5,244 nt of DNA from a virus (taxonomy: Duplodnaviria; Heunggongvirae; Uroviricota; Caudoviricetes), in IMG/VR virus record IMGVR_UViG_2703718777_000003, positions 1 to 5,244 of that record; one strand, written 5' to 3'. Each line of letters begins with the position of its first letter. The stretch's first letter is position 1. Below, one piece after another: positions 1-5,244 of this stretch. Under the pieces are notes generated by a model. That model did no database searches. It was given only the letters and a program-made list of their open reading frames with translations, and was not told the origin of the DNA. The translations under genes were made by a program, and so were the position numbers.

Positions 1-144
1 CAGTACCAGCACCTGAATCCGCGATTATCCCATATACCTACTCGCTGATTGCCCCTCCGCACAGGGGGATTCACCATGCCAGTTTCTTTTAACAAACTCC
101 CCGCAAACCAGACAACAGTCAACCGCCTGAATTGTGAGACATTT

Positions 145-170
145 AAAAAAAAGGCCCGCAAAAGCGAGCC
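145..170 (-). terminator. Intrinsic terminator immediately downstream of the tRNA-like gene
   Basis: On the minus-strand RNA: 7-bp GC-rich stem (GGCUCGC/GCGGGCC, one G-U pair) with UUUU loop (plus 153-170), followed by an 8-U run (plus 145-152 is AAAAAAAA). On the plus strand the stem has a C-A mismatch and no T-run, so it is minus-specific. Confidence 0.6.
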
Positions 171-184
171 AGGGAAAATAAGTG

Positions 185-260
185 TGGCGCGTTGTACTGG
201 ATTCGAACCAGCGACCTGGCGATTATGCGTCGCTCGCTCTCACCACTGAGCTAAAGGGCC
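185..260 (-). tRNA. tRNA-Ile2/Met-like (anticodon CAU) gene, possibly a pseudogene: cloverleaf body intact, acceptor 3' strand non-complementary
   Basis: Reverse complement of 185-260 reads GGCCCTT-TA-GCTC-AGTGGTGA-GAGC-G-AGCGA-CGCATAA-TCGCC-AGGTC-GCTGG-TTCGAAT-CCAGT-ACAACGC-G-CCA. D-arm, anticodon arm and T-arm (GGTTCGAATCC) are canonical and the 5' two-thirds resembles E. coli ileX as I remember it. But the 5' acceptor strand GGCCCTT cannot pair with the 3' strand ACAACGC (2 of 7 pairs), and position 33 is G rather than the near-universal U. Encoded CCA is present. Confidence 0.55.
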
Positions 261-269
261 GGGAGCAGA

Positions 270-298
270 ATAATAACGGTCCGTAATTAATTCCGCAA
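270..298 (-). promoter_or_regulatory. Candidate sigma70 promoter for the tRNA-like gene
   Basis: Minus strand TTGCGG (298-293), 17-nt spacer, TATTAT (275-270); the -10 lies about 10 nt upstream of the tRNA 5' end at 260. The -35 is weak (3/6). Sequence-only prediction. Confidence 0.3.
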
Positions 299-322
299 TA
301 AAAAACCCGCTCAATGGCGGGT
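296..322 (-). terminator. Intrinsic terminator downstream of the ORF6N gene
   Basis: Minus-strand hairpin ACCCGC-CATTGA-GCGGGT (plus 305-322) followed by TTTTTTATT (plus 296-304). The plus strand lacks a T-run after the stem. Confidence 0.6.
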
Positions 323-418
323 TCTGGTAAAGTTCATGCGCTTGGTTCGCCTCGCGATACAGCTTTGCGAAGCATACAGGAATTGAAGCAGTTTATGTGC
401 AAAAATGCAAGAACTTTT

Positions 419-1000
419 TTAAAGCTGCATCAACCTTTCCACCAGTTTATCTCTGCGAACAACAAACCAACCATTGGCTCTCGCCAGTTCCAGCCATGAC
501 TCAAGGGAAATAACAATATCATCATCCCGTAACTGAATTGTGGAAACAGTGACACCGCCTCTCTGATAACAGAGAACTCGCGTGTCGTAACTTTTCTGGC
601 ATGAAACTGGCGCTGACGGATCCTTTTGTCTGAAATAGCAGTCTTCCAGCTTTTCGAACACATCCCACGCCTGATCGGTTTCCAGCATTTTGGCATGACG
701 GGCTGCTCCGCGTTCTGTCCAGAGGATGAGGGAGCGGGCTTTCGGGGAAATTTGTAACCCTCTTAAAGATGGTTGCAAATTTTGTGAGTAGTTTAAAGCT
801 ACCCGCAAATTTTTCAGGGCATCGCCAGCCACTTTGAAAAAATGCTTTCCTTCAATAAAGCGCTCAGCATTTCTGGCGTAGTTATTTTGAATGTTCTTAA
901 CTCCAGCACCGTACAACTGCGCCAAAAGTTCGGTGGTAATAACAGGAATCTGGTTATGGGTGATCGGGGAGAGAGTTTCAACAGAAATTTGAGTTGTCAT
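419..1000 (-). CDS. ORF6N-domain protein (phage antirepressor-like, DNA-binding N-terminal domain; C-terminal about 90 aa unassigned)
   Basis: 193-aa ORF with ATG at 1000-998 and SD GAGGG 7 nt upstream (AGAGGGCGTCATT-ATG); stop TAA at 421-419. The N-terminal region (ITTELLAQLYGAGVKNIQNNYARNAERFIEGKHFFKV ... ISPKARSLILWTERGAARHAKMLETDQAWDVFEKL) fits the ORF6N pattern (L-YG...N..RN..RF.EG..FF ... tErGa) from memory, not from a search. Confidence 0.8.
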   Translation of the reverse strand: MTTQISVETLSPITHNQIPVITTELLAQLYGAGVKNIQNNYARNAERFIEGKHFFKVAGDALKNLRVALNYSQNLQPSLRGLQISPKARSLILWTERGAARHAKMLETDQAWDVFEKLEDCYFRQKDPSAPVSCQKSYDTRVLCYQRGGVTVSTIQLRDDDIVISLESWLELARANGWFVVRRDKLVERLMQL

Positions 1001-1011
1001 AATGACGCCCT

Positions 1012-1116
1012 CTGGTGGTTTCTAAACCATCACCACCGTCAGGTTCCTAATCATCGGGTGGTGAGACGTACAGGGTTAGGAACTACCGGGAAACCAACCG
1101 GCGAGCTTTTCAGCTC
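1012..1116 (-). repeat. Repeat-rich structured leader: nested inverted repeats with pseudoknot-type topology plus a GAAA-tetraloop hairpin
   Basis: Plus-strand arms: TCACCACC 1030-1037 with GGTGGTGA 1057-1064; GTTCCTAA 1043-1050 with TTAGGAAC 1076-1083 (interleaved S1a-S2a-S1b-S2b); GGTGGTTT 1014-1021 with AAACCATCACC 1025-1035 abutting the SD; GAGCT-TTTC-AGCTC 1103-1116 (GAAA loop on the minus RNA). Confidence 0.5.
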
Positions 1117-1160
1117 CCCCATACGCCCCACCATAATTCAGATGTGCGCGTGCATACGAC

Positions 1161-1186
1161 AATAAAAAACACGCTCGCGGCGTGTG
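1161..1186 (-). terminator. tR'-like intrinsic terminator downstream of the Q-adjacent promoter
   Basis: Minus-strand RNA has a 6-bp GC-rich stem (ACACGC/GCGTGT, plus 1169-1185) with a 5-nt loop, followed by UUUUUUAUU (plus 1161-1169). It lies about 80 nt downstream of the predicted start site. Confidence 0.55.
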
Positions 1187-1247
1187 TCTGTCGCGGTCTC
1201 TATCCGGGGTTCCTAATCCCGACGCCAGATTTTGCTGGCGCGTGAGG

Positions 1248-1277
1248 AATATAGCCCCGGATAACAGATTGAGTCAA
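1248..1277 (-). promoter_or_regulatory. pR'-like late promoter; the -35 overlaps the Q stop codon
   Basis: Minus strand TTGACT (1277-1272), the same -35 hexamer I recall for lambda pR', then a 17-nt spacer to CTATAT or 18-nt to TATATT (1254-1248). The Q TGA stop (1276-1274) lies inside the -35. A short GC hairpin (CGCCAG/CTGGCG, 1222-1241) sits in the initial transcribed region. Confidence 0.5.
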
Positions 1278-1828
1278 CAGACAGTTTTTAAATACCCGGA
1301 AGAGAATGCATCACGCATCGGCAGATAGAGCATATATTCAGCAAGATTTAGCCATACATCTACCCGACTGCAGCACGTCCGAAAACACCACTCAGGGTGT
1401 GCATCATTTAGCAATTCAGCCATTTTGCGCTTACTCATCCCCCGCCCTTCATATCTTTGCCGGAGGATACAAATCAATCCTGGGTGTTCTGCCAGCACTT
1501 CACTAATCACCCGATCAATGCATAACGCCTCTGCATCAGTACAATGCACCAGCCAGCTTTTTTGCTTGCCGTTGATCATATCCCGCAAAAAAGCCTCAAG
1601 TTCAGGTTTGTCCAGACCTGCTTTTTTCATCCTCCGGAGCGCCTCATTAATTGCCGTTTTTGTTAGCTTTTTAGAGGTCAGCAACTGGTTAAACATATTT
1701 CCCGTCTTACCGCCGCCAATATACGACCAGCGCCCCCACATACGTAGTTTTCCCTGAATCCAGACACTTTCCAGCGTGGTGAGACGAAGGTGTTCTCCGC
1801 TTTTTCCTGTATTCGTTGGGTAAATCAT
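1274..1828 (-). CDS. Putative late-gene antitermination protein Q (lambdoid Q-like, 184 aa)
   Basis: ATG at 1828-1826 preceded by a strong SD (GGAGAAAGGAGGGATATTT-ATG). The start overlaps the upstream gene's stop as ATGA. The protein has a WGRW segment and C-terminal Cys cluster (EWCFRTCCSR) resembling Q21-type antiterminators from memory. Position after the DUF1364-like gene and directly before a promoter/terminator pair is the classic Q context. Confidence 0.65.
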   Translation of the reverse strand: MIYPTNTGKSGEHLRLTTLESVWIQGKLRMWGRWSYIGGGKTGNMFNQLLTSKKLTKTAINEALRRMKKAGLDKPELEAFLRDMINGKQKSWLVHCTDAEALCIDRVISEVLAEHPGLICILRQRYEGRGMSKRKMAELLNDAHPEWCFRTCCSRVDVWLNLAEYMLYLPMRDAFSSGYLKTVC

Positions 1829-2115
1829 AAATATCCCTCCTTTCTCCAGATTTCTTGTGTGCGAAAAACACCTTCTGCATGCATCAGGCGTAATTCTTCT
1901 TTGGTGTAATCGCCGGTTTTTACCCGCCCGTCGATTAAATCGTGGCACGAGCTACAGGCAATCGCTGCCTGCATATCGTGTGGCTTTATCGCTGTTCCGC
2001 ACGTTCCCGCCAGTCGGTAATGCGCCAGCACAGACGTTTCGGGATTGTGATTGCAGTAGCCAGGGATTCTGACCTGGCACATCTGGCCCCGCGCTGCTTT
2101 ACGTAAATCCACCAT
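1825..2115 (-). CDS. DUF1364-family protein (YbcO-like putative nuclease with Cys/His metal-binding motif)
   Basis: 96-aa ORF MVDLRKAARGQMCQVRIPGYCNHNPETSVLAHYRLAG...IACSSCHDLIDGR, closely matching my recollection of E. coli DLP12 YbcO. ATG at 2115-2113 with SD GGAG 8 nt upstream; overlaps the upstream stop (TAATG) and the downstream start (ATGA). Confidence 0.85.
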   Translation of the reverse strand: MVDLRKAARGQMCQVRIPGYCNHNPETSVLAHYRLAGTCGTAIKPHDMQAAIACSSCHDLIDGRVKTGDYTKEELRLMHAEGVFRTQEIWRKEGYL

Positions 2116-2714
2116 TACGCAAACTCCAGCAGCTGCGCGGCCACATTTTCGACTTCCTCCAAAGAGGAGAATTTACGGAACAGGATCCAGTTCCACAGCA
2201 CATTCAGTACAGATTTATAAACCTGCTGAAACTCGGTTTCGTCCATGTTCGCAAATGCGATAGATTTTGCCCTGCGCCCACGACTACCGTCCGGATAAAA
2301 ATGTTCGGTGTAAAATCCGGCCTGAATGGTTACCCATTCGCGAAAAGCGTCAAAGGACTTGAGTAAGGCCGTATCCCGGGTTCTGCAAGTCGTAACGGTG
2401 TTAAGGTATTGCTCTGCGGCATCACTCAGGGCTGGCGTATGTTCCCGACCTACTGATTCGCACAGGAAATCAACGAAACCGGACACCAGTTCTCGTTCGC
2501 GAGGCGTGATCGCCCCACCGTTCGGAGTCCAGTAATCGAATCCCAGTTGCAGGAGTTTGAAAAAACGCTTGTGGAACGCGTAGTTACGCACTCGCTTAAA
2601 GTCCGCGTGTATCCACTCACCTATTTTGATTTGATGCAAAAAATCGCAACTCTCCGGCGTCGCCGGGAGAAGTAATCCGGAAGAGGTTTGTTTGACCAGT
2701 TGTATATGCGCCAT
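2115..2714 (-). CDS. nin-region protein, probably DUF1367 family (199 aa)
   Basis: Long ORF with ATG at 2714-2712 and SD GGAG 9 nt upstream (GGAGACAGCA-ATG). The ORF-track start at 2726 is a TTG codon. Stop overlaps the next gene's start. Family name comes from the remembered DUF1367/DUF1364 pairing in lambdoid prophages, not from a search. Confidence 0.75.
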   Translation of the reverse strand: MAHIQLVKQTSSGLLLPATPESCDFLHQIKIGEWIHADFKRVRNYAFHKRFFKLLQLGFDYWTPNGGAITPRERELVSGFVDFLCESVGREHTPALSDAAEQYLNTVTTCRTRDTALLKSFDAFREWVTIQAGFYTEHFYPDGSRGRRAKSIAFANMDETEFQQVYKSVLNVLWNWILFRKFSSLEEVENVAAQLLEFA

Positions 2715-2773
2715 TGCTGTCTCCAATGGCGCTGTAGGTTGCCAGTTGTTCAGGCTGGCTTACGAATTATAAC

Positions 2774-2947
2774 TCATTCCCGAATCACCTTGAAACCGAG
2801 CCTTTCAAGATATTCAATGAATGCCTCGATAGATAAAATTACATGATTATCAGGGATTAACGTTGCGTAGATAACTTCCCCATTCTCAACGCGCACAGCA
2901 TAGAGGCCATTTTCACTAAAAATTTCACGCAATTCTTCGATTTTCAT
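2774..2947 (-). CDS. Small hypothetical protein (57 aa), not in the supplied ORF track
   Basis: Hand translation of the minus strand gives MKIEELREIFSENGLYAVRVENGEVIYATLIPDNHVILSIEAFIEYLERLGFKVIRE. ATG at 2947-2945 with SD GGAAGGA 8 nt upstream; TGA at 2776-2774. It sits about 75 nt downstream of a predicted promoter and 59 nt upstream of the DUF1367-like gene. Confidence 0.55.
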   Translation of the reverse strand: MKIEELREIFSENGLYAVRVENGEVIYATLIPDNHVILSIEAFIEYLERLGFKVIRE

Positions 2948-3028
2948 CAACAGAATCCTTCCAGATAAATAGCACTCCCCTGCTCGGGGTCCATCCCTCT
3001 TCTCCCTGCGCGCTACTTAAGTGCATCG

Positions 3029-3056
3029 ATTCTAGTCAGGCATACCCGCTTATCAA
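3029..3056 (-). promoter_or_regulatory. Candidate sigma70 promoter for the small ORF/DUF1367/DUF1364/Q operon
   Basis: Minus strand TTGATA (3056-3051), 16-nt spacer, TAGAAT (3034-3029), located just downstream of the bidirectional terminator. Sequence-only prediction. Confidence 0.4.
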
Positions 3057-3109
3057 CAAACGAAGGTCGGTTTAGTGGAGGAATCGGCTAAAACTTGATC
3101 TGTTAAAGT

Positions 3110-3136
3110 AAAAAACCCGCCGAAGCGGGTTTTTTG
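3110..3136. terminator. Bidirectional intrinsic terminator
   Basis: AAAAAACCCGC-CGAA-GCGGGTTTTTT: a perfect 6-bp stem with 4-nt loop, flanked by A6 on one side and T6 on the other, so a hairpin plus U-run is formed on either strand. Sits 5 nt after the nuclease gene stop. Confidence 0.7.
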
Positions 3137-3140
3137 TATA

Positions 3141-3626
3141 TTACATACTCTCAATGTCATTTTTTAGTGAGTGCTTGTGTAACTCCATGGAGTAATCAAC
3201 ATCACGAAGAGTTTTTTCAATCTGCTTGTTCCCAATAAAAGGTTTATCTTCAGGGTTACCCCAACAGCAATTCCCCTTGGGCCATCCATGTACTTTCCGT
3301 ACTCTTCCGTTAACAACGTGAAGTAATCCCCAGCCGGGTGGTAAATCCTCAATTGAAATAATTCCCGGCTCACTAATAAAGAATCGCCAGTCGCCCATTC
3401 CAAGAGACGGATTTTTACGAAAACGCTTTTTTCTATCTGCCAACAAGTCAGCACGAGAACATTTCGCCTCTATCAGGCATGATGCTGAATTTCTGAATCC
3501 CATAGCATCTGGCTGTTCTCCGGTACTGGTTACAGCTATAAAGCGGTCATGAAAACAAACCTTGAACCCGTTGCGCTTAAGGAACTTGTACGCAATCTGA
3601 CAGAGTTCGCGGTGTGTTAACGCCAT
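3141..3626 (-). CDS. PD-(D/E)xK nuclease-fold protein, Hjc-like (archaeal-type Holliday-junction-resolvase-like core) with a C-terminal extension of about 80 aa
   Basis: 161 aa from ATG 3626-3624 with SD AAGGAGAG (the ORF-track start at 3656 is TTG). Motif order HRELCQIAYKFLKRNGF ... QPDAMGF ... CLIEAKCS matches the E...PD...(E)xK catalytic core. Start lies 1 nt after the Ead/Ea22-like stop (TGA-T-ATG). Confidence 0.8.
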   Translation of the reverse strand: MALTHRELCQIAYKFLKRNGFKVCFHDRFIAVTSTGEQPDAMGFRNSASCLIEAKCSRADLLADRKKRFRKNPSLGMGDWRFFISEPGIISIEDLPPGWGLLHVVNGRVRKVHGWPKGNCCWGNPEDKPFIGNKQIEKTLRDVDYSMELHKHSLKNDIESM

Positions 3627-3627
3627 A

Positions 3628-4575
3628 TCACTCTCCTTTGATGCGAATGCCAGCAAGCCAGTTTCTTATGCCGATATATTCAGCGTTCCTGAAACCGCTT
3701 TTTACATATATAAATGGCAAGCGAAGATTGTGACCATTGACTGCCAGGTAGTCTTTACAACCCTGTTCGGTGAAACAGCAGGTAACGAATTCATCAATAT
3801 CTTTCACAGCAACGCGCCGCCATTTTTCTGGTGGCTCTCGAAAGTTTTCATGAAGTAGCTCGAGACGACGACTATGGCGTTTATTGGCTTCATTGCCATC
3901 TTCGTCAACCCAGACAATCCGGTCATGGTCATAATCAGCATCAACAACGATTTCGCGCTTTTGATACACACAAAACATGGGATCTGACGTTATTCGATTG
4001 TCCTGTGTTCGAATATTTTCACCGATGATGCCAAACGAATCTGGTGCAGATTTTGTCTGCATCTCTTCGATACGTTCAGCCATCGCAGCACACTCTTCAA
4101 AGTTGCTTAATGCTTTTCGCTCCCATTCGGCGCATTGTTTTTCCAGTTCTGCTATGCGCTTACTTCCATCCGCGATTACTCCCTCGTAATATTCACGCTG
4201 CTCGTTGAGTTTTGATTTTGCTGCTTCAAGCTCAACGCGCAGCTTCCCTACCGTAAGCGCAATATCCTCGTTCTCCTGGTCGCGGCGTTTGATGTATTGC
4301 TGGTTTCTTTCCCGTTCATCCAGAAGCGCCAGCGCAACATTTGGATTAAAGGCAGCAATAAATTCAGCGTTTGCATAAGCCTGAACATCTGTTTCAACCA
4401 GGCAGTTAACATGACATTCTGCAATTACGCCACCGGGTTCTCCTTTCCATTTTTGACAAACAAAAACTCCTGTTATATTCCCATGCTGATTGCCCGATGT
4501 ATGCCCTACGATGTAGCATCCTTTAGTTGCTTTCTCTGCTGCTTCACGCAGCGCCTGATAGTCAATCTCGCTCAT
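3628..4575 (-). CDS. Ead/Ea22-like family protein (conserved N-terminal domain, central coiled-coil, divergent C-terminal domain)
   Basis: 315-aa ORF. N-terminus MSEIDYQALREAAEKATKG... resembles Ead/Ea22-like prophage proteins from memory; the centre is heptad-like and charged (ELEAAKSKLNEQREYYEGVIADGSKRIAELEKQCAEWERKAL). ATG at 4575-4573 overlaps the upstream TGA as ATGA. Confidence 0.8.
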   Translation of the reverse strand: MSEIDYQALREAAEKATKGCYIVGHTSGNQHGNITGVFVCQKWKGEPGGVIAECHVNCLVETDVQAYANAEFIAAFNPNVALALLDERERNQQYIKRRDQENEDIALTVGKLRVELEAAKSKLNEQREYYEGVIADGSKRIAELEKQCAEWERKALSNFEECAAMAERIEEMQTKSAPDSFGIIGENIRTQDNRITSDPMFCVYQKREIVVDADYDHDRIVWVDEDGNEANKRHSRRLELLHENFREPPEKWRRVAVKDIDEFVTCCFTEQGCKDYLAVNGHNLRLPFIYVKSGFRNAEYIGIRNWLAGIRIKGE

Positions 4576-4748
4576 TCATCGCCCCACTCATCACAATATG
4601 CTTCGACCGCAGTTTTCCCTGCTTCATAATCATCACGCCATGCTTCAGCATCAGCGGCACTTCCACCGCGTAACTCTGCATAATCCATTAACAGTTCATG
4701 CCATTCTTCAAAACTGGCGTTATATTTAGTTGAACCAAAATCAGCCAT
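4572..4748 (-). CDS. Small hyperacidic hypothetical protein (58 aa)
   Basis: MADFGSTKYNASFEEWHELLMDYAELRGGSAADAEAWRDDYEAGKTAVEAYCDEWGDE, with ATG at 4748-4746 and a strong SD (GAGGAAGGA, 4 nt spacing). About 16 Asp/Glu against 4 Lys/Arg, and W/Y-rich. Overlaps the upstream gene's end by 8 nt and the downstream start by 4 nt. Confidence 0.7.
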   Translation of the reverse strand: MADFGSTKYNASFEEWHELLMDYAELRGGSAADAEAWRDDYEAGKTAVEAYCDEWGDE

Positions 4749-4923
4749 TTTGTCCTTCCTCTTCATCTTTTATTTCGTGGTATGAGTAATTGCAGTGGTT
4801 AAAGAAAATTTCTTTTGCTTCGTCATGAATTTCATCAGGTGTTGCGTCATCATCTACTTCGAATACATCCTCAAAATCTCCACCAGCTATTCCCGTTTCA
4901 ATAATTATTTTGAATTTTCGCAT
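4741..4923 (-). CDS. Small hyperacidic hypothetical protein (60 aa)
   Basis: MRKFKIIIETGIAGGDFEDVFEVDDDATPDEIHDEAKEIFFNHCNYSYHEIKDEEEGQNG, with ATG at 4923-4921. 18 Asp/Glu against 5 Lys/Arg. Its own SD is weak, but a short upstream ORF with a strong SD overlaps its start. Confidence 0.65.
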   Translation of the reverse strand: MRKFKIIIETGIAGGDFEDVFEVDDDATPDEIHDEAKEIFFNHCNYSYHEIKDEEEGQNG

Positions 4924-5016
4924 TTCACTACCGCCATTTCGAACGGCCTCCTGATGTTCTGAGGGTGCAGAAATCCCTCCGGTTAAGGATTAAATTTTTA
5001 ACAGTGCTAAATTTAA

Positions 5017-5244
5017 TTATTCAGTTCTTGATTTTGCCGCCCTGCGTATCCGCGCTTTCGCGTTACGCTCAATCTGAATTAGCTTTTCTATATTTTTCCG
5101 CCTTTCCTGTTCCTCCTGTCGCAATAGCCTTACGTCATCTGCCAGTCTGGTTTCTCTTTTCGCCACAGAGAGCATCCAGTCAAACGGCTCCACAACTGCA
5201 CCGCAGATTTTACAACGGACCTGACGCTCTTTTTCGTCAACCCG
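5017..5244 (-). CDS. Hypothetical protein, 5'-truncated by the window edge (CxxC motif, basic coiled-coil-like C-terminus)
   Basis: Open minus-strand frame from the window edge to TAA at 5019-5017: ...RVDEKERQVRCKICGAVVEPFDWMLSVAKRETRLADDVRLLRQEEQERRKNIEKLIQIERNAKARIRRAAKSRTE. No in-window start, so it is absent from the ORF track. Confidence 0.5.
   Translation of the reverse strand, partial: RVDEKERQVRCKICGAVVEPFDWMLSVAKRETRLADDVRLLRQEEQERRKNIEKLIQIERNAKARIRRAAKSRTE

Follow-up and report, generated by a model that had tools for sequence, protein, structure and literature searches.

This locus raises the question of why an 11-nt motif should be present three times around a terminator, just behind a Q-like antiterminator gene. 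The window analysed here is a stretch of 5,244 nucleotides (positions 1 to 5,244 of the IMG/VR record IMGVR_UViG_2703718777_000003, a Caudoviricetes virus). The original prediction reported exact copies of GGTTCCTAATC at positions 1042-1052 and 1208-1218 of the plus strand and a 9/11 inverted copy between them. We confirmed these copies, the inverted one being AGTTCCTAACC at 1074-1084 on the opposite strand with two mismatches. All features of the surrounding module were found on the minus strand (Table 1). The observation is real and already explained: the motif copies very probably serve as recognition sites in a known antisense-RNA switch of the C4/IsrK type, found in phage P1 and Salmonella Gifsy-1, by which a prophage anti-repressor gene is silenced.

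Table 1. Features of the module and its surroundings. Arrows give positions in the 5' to 3' direction of the minus strand.
Feature	Position	Strand	Remarks
Q-like antiterminator gene	1274-1828	-	DUF1133 and weak Phage_antitermQ match; immediately upstream of the module
Module promoter	1248-1277	-	10/12 consensus matches; conservation starts at the -35 in all genomic contexts
-35 element TTGACT	1277→1272	-	Overlaps the Q stop codon; 18-nt spacer; -10 TATATT at 1253→1248
Short terminated leader RNA, IsrK homologue (78 nt)	1164-1241	-	Carries a1 and b1
a1 (GAUUAGGAACC)	1208-1218	-	9-nt loop of leader hairpin 2; copy 3 of the original prediction
b1 (GAGACCG)	1194-1200	-	Single-stranded linker, 8 nt 3' of a1; position matches P1 b1
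Intrinsic terminator of the short RNA	1164-1185	-	Stem 1185→1169 and U tract; 3' hairpin of the isrK model
C4-type antisense RNA (predicted)	1054-1138	-	Rfam C4 (RF01695), 67.0 bits against a threshold of 45; full-length match 1138→1054
orf45 remnant (27 codons)	1051-1134	-	Overlaps C4; two AUGs 12 nt apart
b' (UGGUUUC)	1090-1096	-	P3 hairpin loop of C4; corresponds to P1 b' loop UCACUAAC
a' (AGUUCCUAACC)	1074-1084	-	Unpaired junction from P3 to the 3' strand of the C4 P1 stem; inverted copy of the original prediction
a2 (GAUUAGGAACC)	1042-1052	-	In the ant leader, 5 nt 3' of the predicted C4 end; copy 1 of the original prediction; equivalent to P1 a2
Alternative hairpin	1030-1064	-	UCACCACC (1064→1057) pairs with GGUGGUGA (1037→1030); a2 in the loop
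b2 (GAAACCA)	1016-1022	-	Ends 3 nt 5' of the ant Shine-Dalgarno sequence GAGGG (1012→1008); equivalent to P1 b2
ant, ORF6N-domain protein (193 aa)	419-1000	-	Pfam ORF6N, 69 bits; homologue of Gifsy-1 anti-repressor AnrP
Candidate late unit pR'-tR' of the DUF1133 Q	~300-410	-	Read from sequence and homology; co-occurs with DUF1133 Q

Short leader RNA and C4-type antisense RNA

The Q-like gene provides the context of the RNA circuit and is not part of it. The first RNA of the module is a homologue of IsrK, matched over its full length by the Rfam model isrK (RF01394; 69.4 bits against a threshold of 50, 1241→1164). It has its own promoter and its own intrinsic terminator, the latter (1185→1164) being the element that had been described as tR'-like. 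With the transcription start set at 1241 by IsrK homology, the motif copy at 1218→1208 occupies +24 to +34 of the 78-nt terminated transcript and the other two copies lie downstream of the terminator, in agreement with the original placement. The predicted fold of the leader RNA comprises hairpin 1 (1241→1222), hairpin 2 with a1, a single-stranded linker with b1, and the terminator. The Rfam family c4-a1b1 (RF03163) passes its threshold marginally (47.8 bits against 46.7, 1254→1201); the PMC2864571 supplement describes it as a two-hairpin motif that holds a1, immediately 5' of b1. The a1 site is homologous to the annotated a1 site of phage P1, and b1 tracks the b' allele in other loci (UUACGGA, UCGAAAC, UUCAACCG and UUCACCG). 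Pairing in hairpin 1 is kept at 99.6%, and 3 of its pairs have both partners changed. Its loop, GCAAAAUC, was considered as a second C4 target and rejected, because it is invariant while b' changes and the true b1 lies 3' of a1.

Downstream of the terminator lies a C4-type RNA with a long outer stem enclosing two hairpins. Its score is close to that of P1 itself with the same model (68.8 bits), and all other alleles tested likewise gave isrK, C4 and c4-a1b1 scores above the thresholds. The mature C4 is predicted to span 1132→1057 (76 nt), judging from the mapped ends of the homologous 77-nt C4 RNA of P1. The sequence around its 5' end, UUAU/GGUGGGGCG (cleavage at the slash), is identical to the RNase P site of P1, and the 3' end (..CCACC) is also shared, so that excision of C4 with RNase P making the 5' end is predicted for this locus by analogy. 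The GGW cleavage motif, C4 processing by RNase P and occlusion of the ribosome-binding site are summarised in PMC5320573. All three C4 helices stay fully paired (100%) across the 32 sequences, and both partners have changed in 10 of the pairs. As a single sequence, the predicted mature RNA folds at -42.4 kcal/mol (z-score -5.7, 81% of the ensemble) with a' and b' unpaired; in the predicted folds of the module, the recognition sites would be accessible. The suggestion of an RNA element pairing across the terminator was essentially correct: the inverted copy corresponds to the unpaired a' segment of a C4-type antisense RNA that has the two direct copies as targets, one (a1) on the short leader RNA before the terminator, the other (a2) in the leader of ant.

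The alternative hairpin downstream of C4 (Table 1) is 98.8% paired, and one of its pairs has both partners changed in 8 sequences. Its 5' arm, UCACCACC, is the 3' strand of the C4 P1 stem, and the hairpin competes with the C4 fold in the unprocessed transcript. The b2 site overlaps the Shine-Dalgarno sequence in other alleles (GUACGGAG). AnrP of Gifsy-1 is likewise an ORF6N protein and Gifsy-1 is induced by it (PMC4825925); by analogy, ant is probably the anti-repressor gene under the control of the RNA circuit. The orf45 of Gifsy-1 has 45 codons, ends on the anrP AUG and couples translation, whereas in the window an extra U in a' breaks the frame of the remnant, which ends 50 nt short of the ant AUG. 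In E. coli alleles orf45 has 14-36 codons and stops 21-90 nt before the ant AUG. The locus thus has the Q-like gene and the AnrP homologue of an IsrK locus, but the coupled orf45-anrP pair is not conserved, and translational coupling through orf45 was rejected as a conserved mechanism for the E. coli alleles.

Covariation of the recognition sites

In a comparison set of 32 distinct related prophage loci, both triads (a1/a'/a2 and b1/b'/b2) change together, over five a alleles and five b alleles. Of the 324 cells of the a1:a' helix, 100% are paired; 5 of its pairs have both partners changed, and none of 500 shuffles was as good; a':a2 is 99.6% paired, also with 5 pairs changed on both sides. 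In the allele of the window, all three a sites carry one extra base at once. Cognate a':a1 duplexes are predicted at -15.5 to -16.8 kcal/mol and cognate a':a2 duplexes at -8.8 to -10.3 kcal/mol, non-cognate pairs being weaker. The b', b1 and b2 sites covary as well, with cognate duplexes of -7.3 to -12.5 kcal/mol (b':b2, -7.3 to -10.7 kcal/mol) and non-cognate ones mostly of -2 to -6 kcal/mol. As for the positional conservation to which the original prediction had tied its motif, the positions are kept in homologous regions, whereas the sequence is not, changing in concert at all three sites.

The promoter and the late unit of the Q gene

The short transcript had been labelled as a pR'-tR' unit, which is probably wrong. 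Lambda-type pR'-tR' units (6S RNA; StxS in Stx phages) likewise have a constitutive promoter just downstream of Q and a short terminated transcript. However, the present module was found behind DUF1133, PF06530 and PF06323 Q genes, behind NinE and also behind an integrase, and its promoter is homologous from the -35 onward. Since this promoter recurs in modules located after three unrelated Q families as well as after NinE, it has no loading site specific to a given Q, and it is not a Q-specific promoter leading into lysis or late genes as in a pR'-tR' unit. The unit that tracks the DUF1133 Q is a different one, downstream of ant, with a candidate -35 of TTGCAT (410→405), a -10 of TTCAAT (387→382) and a CCCGC/GCGGG hairpin with U6 ending near 300; the promoter and terminator scan calls neither a promoter nor a terminator at 410→300. 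In vB_EcoS-666R9, which is without the module, the same unit directly abuts the DUF1133 Q gene, upstream of holin and endolysin genes. The 3' limit of the inserted module is set by this candidate late unit. A role as Q-dependent late promoter is thus unlikely for the promoter at 1277→1248; it is part of the module, and its counterparts are PisrK of Gifsy-1 and P1c4 (P51b) of phage P1.

Proposed mechanism and alternative explanations

It is highly probable that the motif copies are a1, a' and a2 of a C4-type immunity circuit that controls the ORF6N anti-repressor gene (1000→419). With the same confidence, we assign the circuit to the kind of phage P1/P7 immI, in the lambdoid form of Gifsy-1 IsrK, STnc1160(orf45) and AnrP. 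In such a circuit, the constitutive promoter (1277→1248) would start transcripts at about 1241, and the terminator (1185→1164) would stop most of them, giving the 78-nt RNA, in which a hairpin loop presents a1 and a single-stranded linker presents b1. Read-through transcripts would carry C4 and the ant leader, and a C4 RNA of about 76 nt would be cut out of them, with RNase P acting at the 5' end as in P1. Its unpaired a' (junction) and b' (P3 loop) would pair with a2 and b2 in the ant leader. Since b2 abuts the Shine-Dalgarno sequence, the ribosome would be kept off and no anti-repressor made, a silencing that would cover both the prophage itself and superinfecting phages of the same type. 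C4 may in this way repress the anti-repressor gene and confer immunity. The short RNA with a1 and b1 may compete for C4, or refold the read-through transcript via the a1:a' helix; when abundant, it would release ant translation and push the prophage towards induction. For P1, competition of a1 and b1 with a2 and b2 for C4 has already been proposed, as quoted in the PMC2864571 supplement. We infer the processing, the translational repression, the competitor role of the short RNA and the anti-repressor activity of the protein from experiments on P1 and Gifsy-1. Counting against the C4 circuit are the b':b1 pairing of the window, which uses two G-U pairs and reaches only -7.5 kcal/mol, the predicted leader folds, in which a2 and b2 are partly buried in local hairpins, and the narrow margin of the c4-a1b1 score.

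A possible though rather doubtful alternative is a purely mRNA-based refolding in cis and trans, following the IsrK model of Gifsy-1. There, a1 and a' with their flanks pair across the terminator and the mRNA is silent until the short RNA displaces the helix, so that the processed C4 RNA and the a2 and b2 sites would have no essential part. This is the account of the Gifsy-1 authors, who combined refolding of the read-through mRNA with coupling via orf45 and invoked no processed antisense RNA (PMC4825925). It is favoured by native gels and compensatory mutants in Gifsy-1, in which the IsrK mutations G28A and G31A (a1) and the compensatory C162U and C159U (a') coincide exactly with a1:a' pairs. 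These mutants, like the rise of anrP translation with IsrK in trans given below, count in favour of the C4 circuit as well. Refolding is further favoured by a long-range a1:a' helix in the minimum-free-energy fold of the 248-nt transcript as a whole, and by an advantage of 6-7 kcal/mol for a':a1 over a':a2 duplexes, present in each of the five alleles. However, refolding leaves unexplained both the covariation of a2/b2 with a'/b' and the location of b2 at the ant Shine-Dalgarno sequence; the orf45 coupling that it requires is not conserved, while the C4 fold is strongly conserved and a processed RNA (STnc1160) of about 80 nt arises from the Gifsy-1 read-through transcript in Salmonella (PMC4825925). 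Both IsrK and STnc1160 are highly expressed in lysogens. The refolding and C4 models are not mutually exclusive. Termination control of the P4 CI type, in which C4 pairs with nascent a1/b1 and alters stopping at the 1185→1169 terminator, would set read-through rather than translation, and we regard it as improbable. The b1 site lies only 8 nt upstream of the terminator stem and the analogy to P4 was raised by the Gifsy-1 authors (PMC4825925). IsrK supplied in trans raised a transcriptional fusion 8-fold, but anrP translation 139-fold (PMC4825925). Moreover, the folds show no evident alternative antiterminator pairing involving b1, and a2/b2 are again left unexplained. This mode of control also predicts that STnc1160 counteracts IsrK, whereas its constitutive co-expression strengthened IsrK toxicity in Gifsy-1 (PMC4825925), a result equally unexpected under a simple scheme of repression by C4 and its titration by IsrK.

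The original prediction also offered a DNA operator, bound by the ORF6N protein or Q; together with binding by the prophage repressor, we consider this very unlikely. Direct and inverted copies near a promoter do look operator-like, coordinated change would also be expected of co-evolving protein sites, and P1 has a C1 operator near its c4 promoters. Nevertheless, every copy lies in transcribed sequence downstream of the promoter, the inverted one in a single-stranded junction of a covariation-supported RNA and the direct ones in a hairpin loop or next to the ribosome-binding site. ORF6N domains 98% identical to that of the window are linked to a different motif allele (loci L068, L072 and L073, against the window and L075), which speaks against an ORF6N operator, and the range of genes behind which the module is found speaks against a Q operator. 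In locus L066 a G-U wobble takes the place of a Watson-Crick a1:a' pair, and the homologous sites have published compensatory mutants at the RNA level. Hardly any weight is left for chance repeats or a recombination scar, such as a target-site duplication flanking an inserted terminator. With up to two mismatches, the motif has 5 matches in the window against 1.07 expected, a number reached in 1 of 200 shuffles; one of the five (1017-1027), a weak fourth match, is really the separate b2 site. In simulations with 3000 equally long first-order Markov windows, 744 (25%) contained an exact 11-mer repeated in direct orientation within 200 nt, but only 45 (1.5%) had in addition an intervening inverted copy (at most two mismatches). 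The claim that the arrangement is unlikely by chance thus holds moderately for the sequence alone, and the comparison of related loci is decisive: the three sites change together over five alleles while their flanks stay constant. Because of this covariation chance was rejected, and the target-site duplication with it.

Comparison with known systems

Citron and Schuster reportedly described in 1990 the C4 antisense RNA of P1/P7 immI, with a1,b1, a',b' and a2,b2 sites controlling icd-ant. According to the curated P1 record, the order a1, b1, C4, a2, b2 is the same as in the window and the spacing nearly identical. P1 and the window also share the C4 fold (helices P1, P2 and P3) with a' in a junction and b' in the P3 loop, and a sigma-70 promoter just upstream of a two-hairpin leader. 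In both, a2 follows C4 by a few nucleotides and occupies the loop of a hairpin, readable in the P1 sequence too, for which the 3' strand of C4 is used again; b2 lies at a Shine-Dalgarno sequence. Unlike P1, the window has no icd, so that b2 abuts the Shine-Dalgarno sequence of ant itself; its anti-repressor is an ORF6N protein rather than the KilAC-domain Ant1/Ant2, and it has no C1 operator. A canonical intrinsic terminator between b1 and C4 frees a1-b1 as a separate small RNA in the window, whereas in P1 the scan calls no terminator there and no isrK match was found. Finally, the window belongs to a lambdoid prophage, with the module between Q and the late region, and P1 is a plasmid prophage. 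The sar RNA of P22 immI likewise restrains the anti-repressor gene of a temperate phage. As a genuine cis-antisense RNA it is made from the strand opposite to the ant leader, and its partners are the repressors Mnt and Arc, whereas the regulator in the window comes from the same strand and makes short loop-target contacts.

The layout of Gifsy-1 is directly homologous: a Q gene, the same promoter, IsrK, C4 (69 bits), an ORF6N anti-repressor gene, a short RNA unit and a tRNA, described as antQ, IsrK, orf45/STnc1160, anrP and IsrJ (Hershko-Shalev et al. 2016, PMC4825925). For the window, ARAGORN found no tRNA and Rfam gave a partial tRNA match. The Q of Gifsy-1 is of the PF06323 family as against DUF1133 here, and its alleles differ (a, UUGGCGUC; b, CGGUGAU). 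The Gifsy-1 paper likens the system to P4 CI; STnc1160 is not called C4 in it, and a2/b2 are not discussed (PMC4825925). In the satellite phage P4, immunity is likewise maintained by a small RNA, CI, which is released by processing from its operon's own leader and pairs with complementary targets on either side of itself, seqA and seqC (PMC4825925). CI acts by premature transcription termination and not by occlusion of a ribosome-binding site, and its class of target gene differs; no match to the P4 CI family was obtained in the window with Rfam.

Distribution and significance

At least 769 of 5426 complete E. coli genomes carry the module, O157 and O145 strains included. In none of the eight RefSeq records listed is there any annotation at the matched region. 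A regulator of prophage anti-repressors, and hence of induction, is easy to miss there. EHEC genomes have up to four modules each, and the UUGGAAC a allele occurs in the same genome as the allele of the window (loci L003 and L045). The 32 sequences hold at least five a and at least five b alleles in 14 combinations, and since the six sites are interleaved, an allele swap needs several crossovers within 8-20 nt. We tentatively raise the possibility, which at present seems less probable than not, that the a1-b1 short RNA and C4 (a'-b') form an allele-specific pair of sponge and antisense RNA with two freely reassorting recognition codes. If so, the codes would be a combinatorial barcode deciding which co-resident lambdoid prophages silence or cross-induce each other's anti-repressors, the window allele would have a specificity distinct from that of the UUGGAAC allele, and the separately described IsrK and C4 systems would be unified.

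No paper in the literature searched equates Salmonella IsrK/STnc1160 with the P1 a1b1 leader and C4 RNA, and the present comparison joins these two literatures. The motif itself represents no new regulatory principle; its copies are the recognition sites of an immunity RNA known from phages since 1990. Its site alleles are a natural series of compensatory variants for asking how little sequence sets the specificity of RNA immunity, and the allele of the window is a case for whether a single bulged base suffices.

RNA families and recognition sites of the module

All genes in this region lie on the minus strand, and an Rfam search of the window found three known RNA families on the same strand, all above their curated thresholds. 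The motif GGTTCCTAATC was present as originally noted, with exact copies at 1042-1052 and 1208-1218 of the plus strand and a 9/11 reverse-complement copy at 1074-1084. An exact 11-mer direct repeat no more than 200 nt apart occurred in 25% of 3000 simulated windows, and one with an inverted near-copy in between in 1.5%. The triple is rare, but the sequence by itself is only moderately surprising; it is the comparison of related loci that carries the case. If two mismatches or fewer are allowed, the window has five matches (1.07 expected). The fifth, a weak match at 1017-1027 (GGTTTCTAAAC), is a different site, namely b2 plus its flank. The b2 region of the window allele differs from an a site at two positions, and a' could pair there with one mismatch; this likeness, without counterpart in other alleles, is probably due to chance.

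Features of the window around the leader RNA-C4-ant module
Feature	Coordinates	Strand	Remarks
DUF1367	2714->2118	-	gene
YbcO nuclease	2115->1828	-	gene
Q-like antiterminator	1828->1274	-	DUF1133, 354 bits; weak Phage_antitermQ match
Promoter	1277->1248	-	TTGACT-18 nt-TATATT; between Q and ORF6N
c4-a1b1	1254->1201	-	Rfam, 47.8 (threshold 46.7)
isrK	1241->1164	-	Rfam, 69.4 bits (threshold 50)
a1 (assigned from layout)	1218->1208	-	a set
b1	1200->1194	-	GAGACCG; 8 nt 3' of a1
Intrinsic terminator	1185->1169	-	between Q and ORF6N
C4 antisense RNA	1138->1054	-	Rfam, 67 (threshold 45)
b'	1096->1090	-	UGGUUUC; b set
a' (assigned from layout)	1084->1074	-	a set
a2 (assigned from layout)	1052->1042	-	a set
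b2	1022->1016	-	GAAACCA; 3 nt 5' of ant Shine-Dalgarno GAGGG
ORF6N protein (ant)	1000->419	-	ATG at 1000
Candidate late unit	~410->300	-	~117 nt, just past ant stop; TTGCAT-17-TTCAAT promoter-like site, hairpin, U6
Terminator	170->153	-	near STnc100 part

Aligned to the isrK model, the copy at 1218->1208 occupies the second hairpin's loop. Aligned to C4, the inverted copy AGUUCCUAA is the stretch left unpaired where the second inner hairpin meets the 3' strand of the outer stem; the third copy lies 5 nt past the C4 end. The curated record of phage P1 annotates a1, b1, a 77-nt C4 RNA, a2 and b2, with icd and ant next in order. Read from the P1 sequence, the second leader hairpin has a1 (TTGACAG) in its loop, the junction of C4 is a' (CUGUCAA) and the P3 loop is b' (UCACUAAC); a2 starts 3 nt past C4 and b2 overlaps the icd Shine-Dalgarno sequence. 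Since the layout of the window is the same, the motif can be identified as its a set; a b set is present as well. The context of the P1 RNase P site (UUAU/GGUGGGGCG) is identical in the window, which predicts a mature C4 RNA from 1132 to 1057. Its predicted fold (-42.4 kcal/mol, z -5.7, 81% of the ensemble) leaves a' and b' unpaired, and that of the short leader RNA places a1 within a 9-nt loop and b1 within an unpaired linker.

The first leader hairpin (1222-1241, minus strand; 332-351 in L082) carries the loop GCAAAAUC, of which P1 (GCAAAUUC) and Pseudomonas c4-a1b1 members have almost identical versions, whereas the stem of the hairpin covaries. This loop was rejected as a C4 target, being invariant in 32 of 32 E. 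coli-type loci. A perfect 9-nt inverted repeat (TATCCGGGG / CCCCGGATA) at 1201-1209 and 1255-1263 has one arm in the untranscribed promoter spacer and the other just 3' of a1. The spacer beside the -10 element, TCCGGGGC, is conserved across all genomic contexts of the module, and repeat or spacer may be a DNA-level site.

Covariation among related loci

From 80 viral contigs with ORF6N relatives, 32 distinct upstream regions were aligned, and the architecture and covariation of the module are evident in them. Standard a1:a' pairing was found in 100% of 324 cells, with five of 11 pairs changed on both sides, and none of 500 shuffles was as good; a':a2 pairing reached 99.6%, with five of eight pairs so changed. 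The a alleles (a1/a2 strand) are UUAGGAAC in the window, UUGGAAC, UUGGCGUC, UUAGCACC and UUGAGACC, the window allele having one extra base relative to UUGGAAC in all three a sites. The b set, with alleles UGGUUUC, UGGUUGAU, CGGUGAU, UCCGUAC and GUUUCGA, covaries like the a set. Cognate duplexes of b' with b1 and b2 lie between -7.3 and -12.5 kcal/mol, against mostly -2 to -6 for non-cognate pairs; cognate a-set duplexes range from -15.5 to -16.8 (a':a1) and from -8.8 to -10.3 kcal/mol (a':a2). In the C4 helices pairing reaches 100%, 10 pairs being changed on both sides, and isrK, C4 and c4-a1b1 score above threshold in every allele tested. Altogether 14 combinations of a and b alleles are represented (L031, L047, L053, L064, L076 and others in the alignment).

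Sites of the two sets lie intermingled, six in all (a1 b1 .. b' a' .. a2 b2), yet their alleles are reshuffled; to swap one set, either three crossovers within 8-20 nt are required or parallel mutation has to recur. Two loci are recombinants with breakpoints directly at a2: in L061 (1516-1797) a1 and a' belong to the AGCAC allele but a2 is of GGAAC type, and unrelated sequence follows in place of ant, and L063 (1514-1792) keeps the matching a2 with a different downstream region. One genome (IMG 2693429524) has two modules (L003 and L045), with UUAGGAAC and UGGUUUC versus UUGGAAC and UGGUUGAU, a single anecdote on whether co-resident prophages avoid a common code.

Operator, late promoter and module context

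The motif had been suggested to be an operator-like site, possibly bound by the adjacent ORF6N protein. This idea fails because the copies are transcribed and occupy defined RNA-structural positions, because ORF6N domains 98% identical to that of the window are paired with another allele, and because the genes upstream of the module are unrelated to one another. The label pR'-tR' is likewise doubtful, as one promoter, homologous from -35 onward, stands behind unrelated genes: DUF1133 Q, PF06530 Q (L062), PF06323 Q of Salmonella prophage Gifsy-1 and NinE (L068). In L066 the module follows an integrase and the promoter is different.

The real late pR'-tR' unit is probably the ~410->300 element, which is found in every related locus with DUF1133 Q and in none of the others, and is placed where Gifsy-1 has IsrJ. 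A promoter/terminator scan of the window did not call it, and it is assigned on the basis of sequence and context. In phage vB_EcoS-666R9 (L083) this unit lies directly 3' of a DUF1133 Q (85% identical), followed by holin and endolysin; IsrK, C4 and ant are absent. The leader-C4-ant cassette thus seems to have been inserted between Q and its late promoter.

Comparison with Gifsy-1 and proposed mechanism

Gifsy-1 shares the layout of the window, with Q, isrK, C4 (69 bits), an ORF6N protein (AnrP), isrJ and tRNA-Arg. Its IsrK up-mutations G28A and G31A are compensated by C162U and C159U (PMC4825925), and in the Gifsy-1 sequence G28A/C162U and G31A/C159U map exactly onto a1:a' pairs (UUG28GCG31UC versus UAC159GCC162AA). 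IsrK in trans raises anrP translation 139-fold, and AnrP induces the prophage (PMC4825925). STnc1160, an RNA of ~80 nt, is processed from the read-through transcript (PMC4825925 and transcriptomics), and transcriptomics found IsrK and STnc1160 highly expressed in lysogens. The system was likened to P4 CI RNA, and C4 was not named (PMC4825925). From the Rfam matches it follows that IsrK and STnc1160 are equivalent to the P1 a1b1 leader and C4, a statement not found in the literature searched. In Gifsy-1, translation of orf45 is coupled to anrP, a feature that is not conserved: orf45 is shortened to 27 codons in the window and has 14 to 36 in E. coli alleles. In L064 and L035 an orf45-like frame over C4 runs stop-less and in frame into the ant start, the sole E. 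coli-type case resembling that coupling.

The most likely sequence of events would begin with constitutive transcription from the module promoter. The majority of transcripts would stop at 1164, giving a small RNA with a1 and b1, and read-through would give C4 plus the ant leader. Pairing of a' and b' with a2 and b2 would then block the ant ribosome-binding site. Release of ant would come from competition of the small RNA for C4, or from refolding of the long transcript via the a1:a' helix, which is present in its predicted full-length fold. Competition of a1 and b1 with a2 and b2 for C4 was proposed in the P1 work (quoted in PMC2864571). The stronger IsrK toxicity under extra STnc1160 in Gifsy-1 (PMC4825925) is at odds with a simple sponge model. 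We infer processing, repression and competition in the window from P1 and Gifsy-1.

Flanking sequence and distribution

A tRNA-like sequence at 195-254 of the minus strand (Rfam tRNA, 37.3 bits, model positions 7-64 only), in a window where ARAGORN found no tRNA, resembles a decayed version of the tRNA 3' of the anti-repressor in related prophages (tRNA-Arg in Gifsy-1). Positions 1-108 (minus strand) match the 5' portion of STnc100, a small RNA (52 bits), cut by the window end; in the related locus L031 (2869-3124) a full STnc100 (144 bits) is followed on the opposite strand by AgvB, the small RNA of EHEC prophages directed against GcvB. PP818812.1 (matches H1 and H51), labelled an Actinobacillus pleuropneumoniae phage, is 79-95% identical in nucleotides to the E. 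coli prophage region, which is unexpected for the stated host and may call label or host range into question.

At least 769 of 5426 complete E. coli genomes carry the 250-nt regulatory region, in up to four copies each; in the eight records listed, no feature is annotated at the match. The kind of system is already known, and the window adds to it a member with a recognition allele of its own.
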